Positions 15,001 to 18,000 of a stretch of 64,000 bases of DNA are shown here, one piece after another. The DNA is from Candidatus Aenigmatarchaeota archaeon (GTDB lineage: Archaea > Aenigmatarchaeota > Aenigmatarchaeia > CG10238-14 > SCSR01). The stretch lies in NCBI GenBank assembly GCA_038998625.1, contig JAWADS010000001.1, forward strand, positions 30,110 to 94,109. The letters are read 5' to 3'. Position numbers: made by a program. How positions within the stretch are numbered: position 1 is the stretch's first letter; each line of letters starts with the position of its first letter.

Positions 15001-18000
15001 CAAACTTCCAAGGCACAATATCAAAAGCAGGATTTCTAATTTTAACTCCAGTTAATTTTCCAGGATGCAAAAGTCTATGATAAACTTCTTCTGGTGGCCT
15101 TTCTTCTATTACTAGTTTTTCCCTTCTGTCAAGCTTTAATTTATTTCCCACCACATAAAATTTTTTTCCAAAATTTTTAGCAGCTAGAGCTAAATTTAGC
15201 GTCCCAATCTTATTCACAAAACCTTCTTTCCTCATAGCATCTGTGCCCACAATAACCATGTCAACTTCTTTCATGAAAAAACCTACTGCATTATCTGTTA
15301 TCAAAGTTATAGGAATTTTTTCCCTTGCCATTTCTTTTACTGTTTTAATACCTTGTTGTAAAGGTTCTGTTTCTGTTGCTATGACTGAAATTTTTTTCCC
15401 TATTTTGTTGGCGTATTTTATTACCGCTAAAGCTTCCCCCGAATGGCAATGGGTCATGATTTTTGCTTCCCTTGGAATTACTTTTTGACCAATTTTTTCA
15501 ATTTTTTTTGTTGAATTTTCCAGTTGTTTTATTAGTTTGTCTATTGTTGACATTTTTTTATTTTTTTTAATAATTTCCAGGCAGTTGTGCAAAACTACAG
15601 CCGTTGGGCGGGCCCTTTCTAAAATCATAGCTGCAACTTCAAACTTTAATCCAAATCCATTTTTCTTACAGAAATCTTTCAAAAATTTTAATGAATATAA
15701 AGCAATTTCCCTAGCCCCTTGAATTTTTAATTTTTTCAAATTTTTCTCTACTGTTTCTAAATTTTTCATATATTCCAATTATTTTTACAGAAAATTAAAC
15801 ATAAGCCATTATTTCAAATATTTCAAGAACCAATCCTTTGCTAACTTTGCTACTTCTTCCAAGGCTCCAGGCTCTTCAAATAAATGAGTGGCTTTTGGTA
15901 CTATAACTAATTTCTTTTCAGCTTTAATTTTATCATAAGCTTCTTTATTGAGTTCTATAACCGCCTCATCATATTCACCCACAATTAAAAGGACGGGCGC
16001 TTTAACCTTTGGTAAATAGTTTTTTGCAAGATCTGGTCTACCACCACGCGAAACTATTGCAAAAACAGAAGGAATTTTTGTAGAAGCTTGTAATGCAGCA
16101 GCCGCCCCAGTACTAGCGCCAAAATAACCAATTCTTAAGTTTTTAGTTTCTGGATTTGTTAGAACCCATTTAGTAGCAGCAATAAGACGCTCAGCTAATA
16201 AATCTATATTAAATCTATTTTCGTATAAAGCATCTTCCTCTTTCGTTAGCAAATCAAAAAGAAGAGTTCCAATATCGGCTTCTTGTAAAACTCTTGCTAC
16301 AAAAGTGTTTCTTGGGCTGAACCTATCACTTCCACTTCCATGGGCAAATAGCACTATACTTTTTGCTTTTGCTGGTAAATTTAATATACCTTCCAGCTTA
16401 ATATCGTCAGTGAAAATTTTTATTGTTTTATCAATTCCCATAATATTTTTTAAGTATATTAATTACTTCTTCATCTTCAACCTGTCTGAAATCGACATAA
16501 AACTCTCCTATAGCCCCCATAAAGATTGGTTTTTCAACAACAATAACTTCATCAACAATTTTTTCTAATTCGTTAACTGTATCTCTGGGAGCTACAGGAA
16601 CTGCAACAATTATCTTTTTTGGATTTTGTTTTTTTAGAAATTGGATTGCTGCTTTCATTGTAGCTCCTGTTGCAATACCATCATCAACTAATATCAAAGT
16701 TTTATTTTTAAAAGAAGGATATTTTTTTCTTTTTCTATATTTTTTTAATCTCCTTTCAATTTCTTGCAATTCTTTTTTCATTTCTTTTTTTATGTAATTT
16801 TCGCTTACTCCTAAATCTTTAACTAAATTCTCATCTATATACAAACTACCATCCTGAGCAACAGCTCCTATAGCCAGTTCAGGGTTACCAGGAGCACCAA
16901 TTTTCCTTGGAACTATTATATCTAAATTTGCATTAAGATTTTTAGCAATTTCATCAGCAACAACAACTCCTCCTCTAGGAATAGCTAATATAATTGGGTT
17001 TTCATTCTTGAATTTTGTTAAGATTTCTGCTAGCCTTTTACCAGCTTCTGTTCTATCTCTAAACATTCTAATTAGAAGTTAAAATTAACTATTTAAATCA
17101 AAATCTTTTCTGAAATTTCAAATTAATGGGGTCGGAGGGATTCGAACCCTCGTTAACCGGTTGCTTCTTACTTCTCATAGCTCCATATACTGGAGCCGGT
17201 TTTCTAATCATGGAAGATGTCTTAGACCTAGCTAGACCACGACCCCAGCCACCAGTGGGATTCGAACCCACAACCCCCTGATAACTTTCTGTCATTTTTC
17301 CAGTTATCAGGTACAAGTCAGGTGCTCTACCGTTGAGCTATGGTGGCATAAAATAAATATATTTTTTCAAATATAGAAAATTTATAAAATAAAAGTTTTT
17401 TGTTTTATGAATTTTTTAGGTAAAATAATTTAGTCTAGGAAATCTTCTTCTTCAATCTTTTTTGGTAGGTATTTTTCTGTCATATATTTCAATCCTTTAC
17501 CAGAGAGGGATTCCAATTCTGCTTTTATTTTTCTCTGAATCAAAAGTTTTAACTCTTTTTGCCATTCTGGACTTTTAAACCATTCATAATTTAGCATCTC
17601 TTGCGCCCTTTTAATATCAACTTCTTCAGCTTTAATGGTCCACTCCTTTAAGTCGAATTTATCTATATCTGAAATTGTTAATCCTAGGAATTTTGCCTTG
17701 GGCGTTCCCAATTTTTCTGAAATATGGCTAAGGGATATGGAGCCGTGCTTAACAACAGAATAGATATACCATCCCCAACTATCGGCATCAGTAAATACAT
17801 AAACAGGGAGGTTAAATTCTTGAGATAATCTTTGAATTAATCTTCTTGCTCCTCTTGATGCCTGACCTTGCAGTCCAAGCAAAATGCATTTATGTTTTCT
17901 CCAAAATTTATCTTCATTTAATCTTTCCCAAGCCGCTACTTTTTCCACAACCAACAAATAATCTGCATTCATTTTTTTGAATTTTATGTCTTCTACATTC

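Follow-up and report, generated by a model that had tools for sequence, protein, structure and literature searches.

Two adjoining tRNA genes on the minus strand at 17127-17347 of the window, by which we mean the whole stretch of 64,000 nucleotides of a Candidatus Aenigmatarchaeota genome that was analysed, raise the question of whether genes so heavily interrupted can give working tRNAs and, if they can, how their introns would be removed by the small set of enzymes that the genome encodes. Our answer, which we hold with good confidence, is that these and the other interrupted loci of the genome are working tRNA genes with introns of the bulge-helix-bulge (BHB) type, that the introns would be spliced by protein, with a single splicing endonuclease (EndA) making the cuts, and that the long introns would in addition bear guides.

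Results

The tRNA-Thr and tRNA-Trp genes

Gene structures were derived with our own BHB-plus-cloverleaf solver, in which the cloverleaf score has a maximum of 33.5. The tRNA-Thr(UGU) gene (17247..17347, minus strand; exons 17312-17347 and 17247-17282) reaches this maximum with one intron and matches the Rfam tRNA model end to end with a long insertion at 64.6 bits. The intron, of 29 nt, lies at 37/38 (17283..17311, minus strand), where the outer helix has 5 bp, the central helix three of four pairs and the inner helix 3 bp. A relative (G010) has an intron-free Thr-UGU gene of 72 nt, equal in length to the spliced tRNA-Thr(UGU), while the orthologues in G001, G011, G017 and G014 have introns of 29-54 nt at the same site. 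It is noted that boxes resembling YUGA...AUGA are present in the Thr-UGU intron, yet the target position that is paired varies among the orthologues (by eye), and for this reason we do not propose a guide in it.

The tRNA-Trp(CCA) gene (17127..17246, minus strand), which ARAGORN -i names Leu-GAG, adjoins the tRNA-Thr gene with a spacer of 0 nt, and the two would probably be made as one transcript and parted by end processing. It matches the Rfam tRNA model end to end, with long insertions, at 42.6 bits, and with the anticodon CCA and two introns it also has a solver score of 33.5. The first intron, of 17 nt (17202..17218, minus strand), is placed at 25/26 or equally at 26/27 and has a weak motif, with no outer helix, three of four central pairs and an inner helix of 2 bp, its motif score being matched by shuffled introns in 7 of 100 sets; it is absent from all six Trp orthologues, with the same-genus G001 having an intron at 30/31 instead (by eye). 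The second intron, of 28 nt at 37/38 (17162..17189, minus strand), contains 6 nt complementary to nt 31-36, followed after one nucleotide by AUGA. All six Trp orthologues have introns of 28-44 nt at 37/38, where the design is fuller, with the complement, one nucleotide, YUGA, a loop and AUGA.

Census of the tRNA genes

The assembly is a metagenome-assembled genome of 469 kb in 19 contigs, 91.8% complete. The runs listed for 17001-27000 of the window are of DNA, with contigs from hot-spring metagenomes, and no RNA run is among them.

Across the assembly we find 32 tRNA genes, 28 of which are interrupted by 40 introns, with one intron in 18 genes, two in 8 and three in 2. The introns are 10-45 nt long (median 13, n=40), and 13 of them lie at 37/38 while the other 27 are spread over 16 other sites. 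The spliced products of the 32 genes have cloverleaf scores of 28.5-33.5 out of 33.5, and removal of the segments gives a canonical cloverleaf in each of the 28 interrupted genes (30-33.5). The genome-wide survey's note had counted 32 genes with about 27 interrupted by one to three introns at varied sites, and its identities, numbers and positions agree almost item by item with our independent solution, including the intron-free set, which consists only of Arg-CCU, Gly-UCC, Arg-GCG and the odd C5:537-608. Its reading of Arg-UCU as a gene with three introns is also borne out, the alignment to an uninterrupted homologue leaving gaps of 12, 10+2 and 32 nt. Thus a 0.47-Mb genome retains 40 introns in 32 tRNA genes.

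Six more of the genes, besides the Thr/Trp pair, lie in the window. The tRNA-Phe(GAA) gene (22490..22593, plus strand) has a 13-nt intron at 26/27 (22517-22529) and a 17-nt intron in the T-loop at 59/60 (22563-22579), the latter with a full BHB of 5/4/3. The tRNA-Val(CAC) gene (24611..24693, minus strand; Rfam 52.2 bits) has a 12-nt intron at 28/29 (24655-24666). The tRNA-Leu(CAA) gene (34235..34378, minus strand; Rfam 35.7 bits), named Lys-UUU by ARAGORN, has two introns, one of 18 nt at 30/31 (34328-34345) and one of 40 nt at 37/38 (34281-34320), which is guide-like; joints at this locus (34262-34349) that could be taken, at 80% likeness, for intron-free alleles proved to have replaced letters and to be tRNA-Leu genes of other organisms. 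The tRNA-Gly(GCC) gene (35121..35206, minus strand), named Phe-AAA by ARAGORN, has a 12-nt intron at 29/30 (35164-35175), and an intron-free homologue in G019 (74 nt) is identical to it at 66 of 74 positions; the tRNA-Thr(CGU) gene (35926..36011, minus strand) has a 12-nt intron at 27/28 (35972-35983) and an intron-free homologue in G016. Finally, the tRNA-Gln(UUG) gene (46475..46591, plus strand), named Stop-UUA by ARAGORN, has a guide-like intron of 44 nt at 37/38 (46513-46556) with a central helix of 4/4 pairs.

Standard tRNA finders miss or mislabel such genes because one to three short introns interrupt nearly all of them. ARAGORN -i makes 26 calls, and 15 of the 26 names differ from the solver reading, among them the three cited as wrong in the survey's note, namely Leu-GAG for Trp-CCA, Lys-UUU for Leu-CAA and Stop-UUA for Gln-UUG. 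Moreover, the six genes that the note had listed as missed (Ile-UAU, Leu-UAA, Ile-GAU, Phe-GAA, His-GUG and Gln-CUG) are real genes by our solution: all six form clean cloverleaves in the solver, none is in the ARAGORN -i output, and in Rfam four are absent and two fall under the cut-off. For this lineage ARAGORN and Rfam therefore miss or mislabel most tRNA genes, and the 15 wrong names together with the six unfound genes imply that the apparent tRNA gaps of DPANN archaea are partly an annotation artefact.

About 14 expected anticodons, including all of Asp, Lys and Tyr and the initiator, are not found in the assembly, as the survey's note had also stated, so the census is incomplete. Further scans add none of them. 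A strict T-arm scan gave 29 matches, all within the known 32 genes; a scan for 5'-half plus acceptor gave 54 extra matches, AT-rich throughout and unconvincing as tRNAs; a scan for orphan 5'-halves gave no convincing candidate; and BLAST with the relatives' Lys, Pro-GGG and Ser-GGA tRNAs returned known genes only. GC-rich intergenic islands proved to be the SRP RNA, a probable RNase P RNA, a 20-copy repeat and small ORFs. There is no sign of split or permuted tRNA genes in these scans, which halves with interrupted arms would escape.

Some of the structures were settled by hand. The 'introns' that the solver put within the long variable arms of Ser and Leu tRNAs are artefacts and were removed, a two-intron D-loop solution for Glu-CUC was replaced by one 24-nt intron, and the two-intron alternatives for Gln-UUG gave way to a single intron of 44 nt. 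Hand placement was also needed for the introns of Val-CAC and both Pro introns, which a filter requiring a flank of 2 bp or more did not pick up. The models of Ile-UAU and Ile-GAU are based on cloverleaf and motif only, with no solution for the Ile-GAU orthologues in the scan.

Splice junctions

In the mechanism that we propose, each intron would fold so that a 4-bp helix positions the two cuts, each 2 nt 3' of a helix strand and in a 3-nt bulge or a loop, and most micro-introns of 10-14 nt would form only that helix and an outer stem, that is, a bulge-helix-loop. As the BHB score itself fixed part of the borders in the solver, the chance control, consisting of 100 sets of shuffled introns under our own scoring, was given the same placement freedom of +/-4 nt. 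Under this free placement the central helix has 4/4 pairs at 24 of 40 junctions (shuffled mean 5.5, maximum 11) and at least 3/4 pairs at 40 of 40 (shuffled mean 23.2, maximum 29), and the motif score averages 6.19, the shuffled sets averaging 4.06 (maximum 4.51). The intron ends are stereotyped, with A as the first nucleotide in 28/40 and AA as the last two in 29/40.

After curation, at least three of the four central pairs are present at 39 of 40 junctions and fewer than three at one; among the 40, both flanking helices are found in 8, the outer one only in 22, the inner one only in 3 and neither in 6, the last being the junction with fewer than three central pairs. The motif of Pro-UGG consists of the helix alone. 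The full BHB is thus missing in 32/40 introns, in line with the relaxed sites described in the survey's note. At six junctions, those of Ser-UGA, Ile-UAU intron 1, Ile-GAU intron 3, Arg-UCU introns 1 and 3 and Gln-CUG intron 1, the motif is no better than in shuffled introns, which equal or exceed the score in 34-84 of 100 sets, and for half of the introns (20 of 40) the exact borders can shift by 1-4 nt, there being more than one equivalent placement.

The borders can also be compared with the relatives. For 8 interrupted genes there are intron-free homologues with the same anticodon, which have the predicted spliced length to within +/-2 and are identical at 52-66 of 72-75 positions. The Ser-UGA orthologues have an intron at the identical 37/38 junction. 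At the syntenic tRNA-Phe gene upstream of endA the intron set differs in each of six relatives, the gene of G010 being intron-free. Since even a single syntenic gene can have different intron sets from genus to genus, the family offers a natural series for the study of intron gain and loss. Judged from the lengths of their Rfam hits, G001 and G005 seem equally rich in tRNA introns, and G010 and G016 roughly half as rich.

It could be argued that many of the loci are pseudogenes in decay, or remnants that resemble tRNA genes, and that the insertions stay in, as might be suspected from the 14 missing anticodons and from C5:537-608, which lacks U8 and A14. This is very improbable in our view, because every locus except C5:537-608, which duplicates Asn-GUU, is the sole gene for its anticodon in the assembly, because the exons keep their full cloverleaf pairing and conserved nucleotides while the introns vary between genera, and because the junction motif is far above chance. 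Still less probable, to a degree that we regard as negligible, is that the insertions are artefacts of assembly or binning. The source is a metagenome-assembled genome, and for 11 of the 32 tRNA genes the end of a contig is no more than 2 kb away; against this, DNA contigs from other runs cover 17001-27346 with one gap and 11 letters that differ, the Thr/Trp genes being free of indels, six runs each contain 81% or more of the words sampled from the stretch, and the relatives have introns at the same sites.

The splicing endonuclease

We thus proceed with the reading as working, interrupted genes, and turn to the enzyme that would cut them. The endA gene (22613..23179, plus strand; Pfam PF02778 and PF01974), 20 nt downstream of tRNA-Phe(GAA), encodes an EndA of 188 aa, and, in agreement with the survey's note, it is the only one found in the assembly: phmmer and a family HMM give no second match at E<0.1 among 2236 ORFs of at least 50 aa. 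The best PDB match by sequence is 1a79, the M. jannaschii alpha4 enzyme (E 4.7e-30), and a monomer model (pLDDT 81.3) has 1a79_A as its best Foldseek match (TM 0.76/0.83). With its N- and C-terminal domains EndA fits the size of single-gene alpha4 enzymes (about 180 aa). An acidic L10 region is a feature of alpha4 enzymes, and an acidic stretch of EndA aligns to the L10 region of the M. jannaschii enzyme. From the alignment and the model EndA is probably a homotetramer like the latter. Full-length homologues of 180-236 aa are found in 17 of 20 relatives, and of these only G013 has a second match (a 395-aa frame).

The active site departs from this type. Tyr118 and His134 align to the catalytic triad, while the position of the triad Lys, which is Lys in 1a79, 5x89, 4fz2 and 3iey_A, is Ala165 in EndA and Ala in 12/12 relatives, so that EndA lacks the Tyr-His-Lys triad of alpha4 enzymes and its full activity cannot be assumed. 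In a survey of diverse representatives, Lys stands at this position in 133 of 151 Tyr/His-bearing domains; the long-loop enzymes like that of N. equitans keep it (10/10), whereas the enzymes with the loop type of EndA have Ala or Ser (9/9). Between the catalytic Tyr and His there are 15 residues in EndA versus 9 in 1a79, among them the insert RGVKLKRGPK (residues 120-129), which is invariant in 12/12 aligned sequences and aligns without gaps to the insert of the N. equitans alpha-subunit (3iey_A). It is rich in Lys and placed within the C-terminal domain at the site known from N. equitans and ARMAN-2, as in L3-type enzymes (site per the available part of PMC3239211), and the available text of PMC3239211 and PMC5829648 ties the N. 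equitans insert to recognition of relaxed motifs. As only 8/40 introns have both flanking helices, EndA would have to accept relaxed motifs, and the sequence suggests that it may do so with this Lys/Arg-rich insert in the Tyr-His catalytic loop. The enzyme, with one subunit, no textbook catalytic Lys, an invariant basic insert and mostly minimal motifs to cut, bears on how loop insertions widen EndA specificity.

A different assembly of the enzyme deserves attention, in which it is not a homotetramer and a diverged beta subunit or a second nuclease, either in the unassembled part (about 8%) or escaping the search, provides the relaxed specificity or the missing Lys. With a completeness of 91.8% and 19 contigs, the assembly could hide a second subunit in a gap; EndA is without the triad Lys; beta subunits diverge, that of N. 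equitans matching EndA only at E 3.5e-4; and EndA-like frames of about 395-409 aa occur in the order relatives G013, G016 and G018, and one of 246 aa in G019. By contrast, besides the search of the 2236 ORFs, exactly one match is found in each of 12 same-family relatives, and EndA has both domains and the acidic stretch of alpha4 enzymes. We hold a second subunit to be improbable and keep to the single EndA, which, probably as a homotetramer, would cut both splice sites, the exons then being joined by RtcB. Genes for RtcB, fibrillarin, Nop5 and L7Ae are present in the assembly.

Guide-like elements in the long introns

Six of the seven introns of at least 28 nt at 37/38, namely those of Trp, Met, Leu-CAA, Leu-UAA, Gln-UUG and Arg-UCU, look from their sequences like box C'/D' guides aimed at the wobble nt 34. 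The design consists of an antisense element, one nucleotide, YUGA (CAGA in Leu-UAA, AUGA in the genome's own Trp) and then AUGA, and it is present in 6/7 introns versus a mean of 0.0075 in shuffled ones (maximum 1, over 2000 shuffles). As in box C/D guides, where the antisense ends one nucleotide before the D/D' box and the target is the fifth nucleotide, nt 34 is always opposite the fifth nucleotide upstream of the box. The design recurs in 11/12 Leu orthologues (by eye), where changes in the anticodon and in nt 31 are matched by changes in the antisense element, and in the relatives' Lys-UUU, Arg-UCU and Trp introns. Acting with L7Ae, Nop5 and fibrillarin, the antisense element and the D'-like (YUGA) and C'-like (AUGA) boxes would direct 2'-O-methylation of nt 34.

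Pairing between anticodon and intron is common in pre-tRNAs, and the complement to the anticodon loop might serve only the folding of the pre-tRNA or the presentation of the BHB, with no methylation. The terminal C/D k-turn and the guide of about 10-12 nt are not present, only D'-like and C'-like boxes with a complement of 6-7 nt, and the genome's own Trp intron has lost its separate D'/C' pair, all of which would suit such a folding role. On the other hand, the central helix in the BHB register is built by the last six intron nucleotides, apart from the complement, which therefore competes with the BHB instead of building it. The spacing of one nucleotide to the box is fixed, AUGA follows, and the place of nt 34 is constant; complete C-D'-C'-D arrangements are found in the relatives' Ser introns, and only there (by eye); and the targets agree with known guides, the tRNAs whose nt 34 is addressed by C/D sRNAs in Pyrococcus being precisely Leu-CAA, Leu-UAA, Met and Trp in the available part of PMC7994747. 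A purely folding role is thus possible, and we consider it the less likely reading. The guide reading, if true, extends the single textbook case (tRNA-Trp) to a class of tRNAs.

Enzyme and guides can be joined in one conjecture, which we offer tentatively and hold to be less likely true than not. After loss of the triad Lys, the invariant Lys129 of the loop (in a G-P-K motif) may have replaced it at the scissile phosphate, allowing a one-gene enzyme to cut minimal helix-only motifs anywhere in the tRNA, and in the same lineage half-size box C'/D' guides may have come to sit as a rule in tRNA introns, where they would serve to methylate wobble nt 34 in the tRNAs for purine-ending split codon boxes, namely those of Leu, Gln, Lys, Arg, Trp and Met.

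Comparison with known systems

Alpha4-type EndAs with the extra loop L3 have been linked to greater tRNA gene disruption in DPANN archaea (Kaneta et al. 2018, PMC5829648), so that the novelty, which the survey's note had seen among other things in the extent of disruption in Aenigmatarchaeota, is confined to lineage and extent. In the available text of that study, the EndAs of the L3 type (Nanoarchaea/ARMAN-2) share with ours the single gene, the M. jannaschii architecture and the Lys-rich loop in the C-terminal domain, the genomes share abundant non-canonical and multiple tRNA introns, and those named are Pace-, Woese-, Nanohalo- and Mancarchaeum genomes, with no Aenigmatarchaeota. Here, by contrast, 28 of 32 genes are interrupted, and EndA has its own invariant loop RGVKLKRGPK with Ala in place of the triad Lys.

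The Thermoproteales (Sugahara 2008, as cited in PMC4033280) have in common with the present genome, as far as the available text goes, up to three introns per gene, sites including the D-loop, 26/27, 29/30, 30/31, 45/46, 53/54 and 59/60, relaxed hBH/HBh'/BHL motifs, and similar introns in different tRNAs. The extreme members are described there as having multiple introns in more than half of their tRNA genes (PMC4033280), against 10 of 32 here, and the note's statement that this set is among the most intron-dense known is not upheld by this measure. Their EndA is an (alpha-beta)2 heterotetramer with a loop in the N-terminal domain, whereas here there is one subunit and the insert is in the C-terminal domain. 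Hirata in 2011 reportedly described an EndA with a Crenarchaea-specific loop. The EndA alpha-subunit of N. equitans (3iey_A) and the epsilon2 EndA of ARMAN-2 (4fz2) have their insert at the same site, between catalytic Tyr and catalytic His, but retain the triad Lys, where ours has Ala165; the former needs a beta subunit and the latter is a three-unit fusion.

As to the guides, Haloferax and other Euryarchaeota have a box C/D guide within the intron of tRNA-Trp (PMC7994747, PMC11408192), and Trp is the only tRNA for which the available parts of these two sources name an intron-borne guide. This guide and the Pyrococcus sRNAs share with the introns studied here the antisense upstream of a D'-type box, nt 34 as the fifth nucleotide and the same target tRNAs. 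The differences are that here the putative guides are intron-borne also for Met, both Leu, Gln-UUG and Arg-UCU (and Lys-UUU in relatives), and that they are half-size, with D'/C' only, in introns of 28-45 nt. Taken together, the tRNA set of this genome is an extreme case of the known archaeal tRNA gene disruption, its novelty lying in the lineage concerned and in how far the disruption goes.

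tRNA genes and their introns

In the assembly (469,094 bp in 19 contigs, 91.8% complete) we find 32 tRNA genes, 28 of which are interrupted, by 40 introns, as solved by our program, which lists the bulge-helix-bulge (BHB) candidates, excises at most three and gives what is left a cloverleaf score. The census comprises the loci matched by Rfam (26 matches at E≤1, of which 21 exceed the cut-off) and called by ARAGORN (13 genes without introns and 26 when introns are permitted), together with the extra loci of the genome-wide survey's note, all of which were solved. The pervasive interruption and misnaming that this note had described are thus borne out, with 15 of the 26 names that ARAGORN gives when introns are allowed being wrong and 11 right, and six genes being uncalled. 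The six genes that it had found to be absent from the RNA table are real, as all of them solve cleanly; four are not in the Rfam list and two lie under its cut-off.

The interrupted genes have one intron in 18 cases, two in 8 and three in Ile-GAU and Arg-UCU, with the intron length ranging from 10 to 45 nt (median 13; at most 14 nt in 23 of 40). Thirteen introns are at 37/38 (the nucleotide pair flanking the intron), and the other 27 are spread over 16 sites: 30/31 (six), 29/30 (three), 45/46, 59/60, 20a/21 and 20b/21 (two each), and 10/11, 15/16, 25/26, 26/27, 27/28, 28/29, 38/39, 40/41, 44/45 and 53/54 (one each). According to a 2024 review, about 15% of archaeal tRNA genes have introns, three quarters of which are at 37/38 (PMC11408192). 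The uninterrupted genes are Arg-CCU, Gly-UCC, Arg-GCG and an atypical Asn-GUU-like gene at C5:537-608 (minus strand). The latter, a second, uninterrupted gene of this kind (Rfam 45.3 bits), is without U8 and A14, has an A1-A72 mismatch and sits 536 nt from the contig end; perhaps it is a tRNA-like remnant, or else of foreign origin.

In the window, which is C1:30110-94109 of the assembly, two full-length Rfam tRNA matches adjoin on the minus strand at 17127-17347, one at 17247-17347 (64.6 bits) and the other at 17127-17246 (42.6 bits), with lengths of 101 and 120 nt that are over tRNA length. ARAGORN calls neither gene without introns, and with introns it names them Thr-UGU and Leu-GAG. The solver reads the first as tRNA-Thr(UGU), whose single intron of 29 nt lies at 37/38, and the second as tRNA-Trp(CCA), with introns of 17 nt at 25/26 (equally 26/27) and 28 nt at 37/38, both spliced products having the top cloverleaf score of 33.5. 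The coordinates were verified against the sequence, and there is no spacer, nucleotide 1 of Trp following directly after the Thr discriminator. Window 17001-27346 is covered by DNA contigs of other runs that differ from it in 11 letters and by one gap, with no indel listed inside the two genes.

About 14 expected anticodons, among them the initiator and every one for Asp, Lys and Tyr, are absent from the census, and scans for T-arms, 5' halves and GC islands and for homologues of the relatives' Lys tRNAs gave no further tRNA genes. Because 11 of the 32 genes lie less than 2 kb from a contig end, a zone that makes up 16% of the genome (binomial test, P 0.009, an overstatement since the genes are clustered), the assembly gaps are a likely home of the remaining ones.

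It is also noted that tRNA-Leu(UAA) at C4:18722-18877 (plus strand) has CCA encoded after the discriminator, the other genes being without it, and that tRNA-His at C13:1229-1317 (minus strand) has an encoded G-1 opposite C73. The AUA decoder at C2:1322-1425 (minus strand) appears to be a tRNA-Ile with the anticodon UAU and not a CAU tRNA requiring agmatidine; such a UAU tRNA is known in N. equitans and Korarchaeum.

Splice junctions compared with chance and with relatives

At 39 of the 40 curated junctions, the central 4-bp helix has at least three pairs in the exact register, with the splice sites 2 nt 3' of the strands. Flanking helices of at least 2 bp are present on both sides in 8 introns, on the outer side only in 22, on the inner side only in 3 and on neither in 6. 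Since some borders had been picked by BHB score, a shuffle control of equal freedom was run, in which real and shuffled introns alike were placed freely within ±4 nt, with the cloverleaf score at most 1 point off that of the curated product. Under this control the real introns have all four pairs at 24 of 40 junctions and at least three at 40 of 40, with a mean motif score of 6.19, while the 100 shuffle sets have on average 5.5 (maximum 11) and 23.2 (maximum 29) such junctions and a mean score of 4.06 (maximum 4.51). Taken singly, some ten introns do not outdo the shuffles: the score is equalled in at least 30 of 100 shuffles for nine, among them Ser-UGA, Ile-UAU 1, Ile-GAU 2 and 3, Arg-UCU 1 and 3, Gln-CUG 1 and Gly-CCC 2, and in 26 of 100 for Glu-CUC. 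The intron ends are stereotyped, with A first in 28 of 40 and AA last in 29 of 40.

The borders can also be compared with those in the related genomes (labelled G001, G005 and so on). For eight interrupted genes (Pro-UGG, Arg-UCU, Gly-GCC, Thr-UGU, Thr-CGU, Arg-UCG, Asn-GUU and Phe-GAA) there are uninterrupted homologues of the same anticodon, which have the predicted spliced length within ±2 and are identical at 52-66 of 72-75 positions. Aligned to such a homologue, the Arg-UCU precursor shows gaps of 12, 10+2 and 32 nt, corresponding to its three introns, and the Asn precursor one 13-nt gap. The syntenic tRNA-Phe(GAA) directly upstream of the gene for the splicing endonuclease, EndA, was compared by eye across the relatives' EndA loci: the introns are at 26/27 and 59/60 in our genome, at 26/27 and 39/40 with an intact T-loop in G001 of the same genus, at 30/31 and 59/60 in G007, and near 9/10 and 39/40 in G006, with only one near 8/9 in G017, one in the D-loop in G012 and none in G010. 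Thr-UGU has 37/38 introns of 29-54 nt in four genomes and is uninterrupted (72 nt) in G010. As read by eye, Trp has a single 37/38 intron of 28-44 nt in five genomes, and its second intron is at 30/31 in G001 and at 25/26 in ours. The Ser-UGA orthologues have an intron at the same 37/38 junction, much longer than ours. Gauged crudely by Rfam hits longer than 76 nt, a length that class II tRNAs also exceed, the intron density varies among these genomes: such hits number 15 of 17 in G001, about 24 of 27 in G005, about 20 of 42 in G010 and 18 of 42 in G016.

Note also that the 59/60 T-loop introns of Phe (window 22563-22579) and His (C13), of 17 and 15 nt, share ends, BHB design and central helix, and that the 37/38 introns of Leu-CAA, Leu-UAA and Gln-UUG have 3' parts in common. 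These likenesses suggest that introns have moved from one tRNA gene to another, a process that has been proposed for Thermoproteales.

The splicing endonuclease

The EndA gene (window 22613-23179) is one ORF of 188 aa with both EndA Pfam domains. Among 2236 ORFs of at least 50 aa, compared with this EndA and with the family profile, no second EndA better than E 0.1 was found. The reading of an intron-dense tRNA set with a single EndA holds. Among solved structures, the M. jannaschii homotetramer 1a79 is closest both in sequence (E 4.7e-30) and in fold (TM 0.76/0.83, with a predicted model of pLDDT 81.3). We infer the oligomer state and relaxed specificity of the enzyme, as well as the splicing of the tRNA introns. 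A full-length homologue (56-82% identity) is present in 17 of 20 relatives; the matches in G016, G018 and G019 are all distant and in longer frames, and both kinds occur in G013. Such EndA-like matches occur in some genomes of the same order within frames of about 395-409 aa at G013:C1:15465-15875, G016:C4:8486-9208 and G018:C3:2419-2826, with two matches in one frame in G016 and a 182-aa form besides the long frame in G013; these frames may be of the three-unit epsilon2 type.

The interval from the catalytic Tyr to the His is six residues longer than in 1a79. It contains RGVKLKRGPK, which is unchanged in 12 of 12 aligned sequences except at one position (Lys125) and aligns gap-free with the N. 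equitans alpha-subunit insert, which is rich in Lys. The literature describes this insert site as common to N. equitans and ARMAN-1/-2 and as a proposed aid to the recognition of relaxed motifs (PMC3239211). Under the later name L3 it is reported for alpha4 enzymes from several DPANN lineages, along with a greater disruption of tRNA genes (PMC5829648). The model has pLDDT values under 50 at residues 126-132, which suggests a flexible loop.

The third residue of the Tyr-His-Lys triad is replaced. Ala165 aligns with the catalytic Lys (index 148 in chain 1a79_A, which we take to be Lys156 in M. jannaschii numbering) in all four alignments to solved enzymes, and it occupies this position in 12 of 12 relatives. 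Among 151 domains that align Tyr and His, from 150 diverse cluster representatives and the query, the position holds Lys in 133 and another residue in 15, and is truncated in 3. It is Ala or Ser in 9 of 9 catalytic domains with the loop type of our family (15-16 residues, R-G-V/I-K/N ... G-x-K), and Lys is kept in 10 of 10 other domains with loops of at least 13 residues, including N. equitans-like and ARMAN-like ones. Because the former sequences form one clade, the association reads as a shared trait of that clade and not as statistical proof. Lys129 of the G-P-K motif, present in all nine domains, would be a candidate to stand in for the lost Lys.

The genome also encodes RtcB, fibrillarin, Nop5 and L7Ae. 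The Pfam match of RtcB (C12:6941-9724, minus strand) falls into two parts (profile 1-51 and 49-426), which lie about 1.4 kb apart in a single open frame of 985 aa, as would be expected for an intein. A second L7Ae-family match of 61 bits, with one in-frame TAA, is at C4:4081-4347 (plus strand).

Guide-like elements in the long introns

Six of the seven 37/38 introns of at least 28 nt (Trp, Met-CAU, Leu-CAA, Leu-UAA, Gln-UUG and Arg-UCU, with Thr-UGU being without it) share a design: a 6-7-nt complement to nucleotides 31-36/37, one nucleotide, a D'-like box (CUGA or UUGA; CAGA in Leu-UAA and AUGA in our Trp), 4-11 nt and AUGA. The fifth nucleotide upstream of the D'-like box pairs with the wobble nucleotide 34. 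In 2000 sets of seven shuffled introns the design occurs 0.0075 times per set, with a maximum of one. By eye, it is present in 11 of 12 Leu(CAA/UAA) genes of 12 relatives, where the antisense element tracks the anticodon and, once, an altered nucleotide 31; it is also found in Lys-UUU (G003, G012), Arg-UCU (G006) and Trp (G019). These long introns thus look like methylation guides for nucleotide 34, and intron-borne elements would presumably direct the methylation. Against a full C/D identity speak the short complement and the absence of terminal C and D boxes. All of the tRNAs concerned read the purine-ending halves of split codon boxes, a pattern that would fit a role of Nm34 in wobble restriction.

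In the relatives, the 53-63-nt 37/38 introns of tRNA-Ser (L090, L087, L089, L082, L084 and L086) resemble, by eye, complete box C/D sRNAs, with C, D', C' and D boxes and spacers of about 10-12 nt; our Ser-UGA intron has only 18 nt.

Other RNA elements

A GC-rich intergenic repeat of about 81 nt (window 37812-37892) has 20 copies genome-wide that are 84-100% identical, e.g., C2:26405-26485, C13:10055-10133 and C12:10446-10526. It folds into a 9-bp GC hairpin and a second stem, some copies having a GC-rich extension of 30-40 nt, and several copies are at contig ends or adjoin tRNA genes; a whole-window E-value scan gave no Rfam match to it. The SRP RNA is at window 28405-28678 (minus strand; 136.9 bits). 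One of three GC-rich intergenic islands (C12:1724-2102, C17:6044-6389 and C12:9884-10024) is, by look, probably the RNase P RNA.

Comparison with known systems

Two features, as read from the sequences, would be worth bench work: the Lys-less EndA with its invariant basic insert and the putative intron-borne guides for nucleotide 34. For the latter, Pyrococcus is described as having C/D sRNAs whose nucleotide-34 targets are precisely Leu-CAA, Leu-UAA, Met and Trp, with only the Trp guide being intronic (PMC7994747). In a search of the openly accessible literature, we found no papers on tRNA introns in Aenigmatarchaeota. The heavily interrupted tRNA gene set is confirmed; the kind of system is already known, and what is new is an extreme member of that kind in Aenigmatarchaeota.
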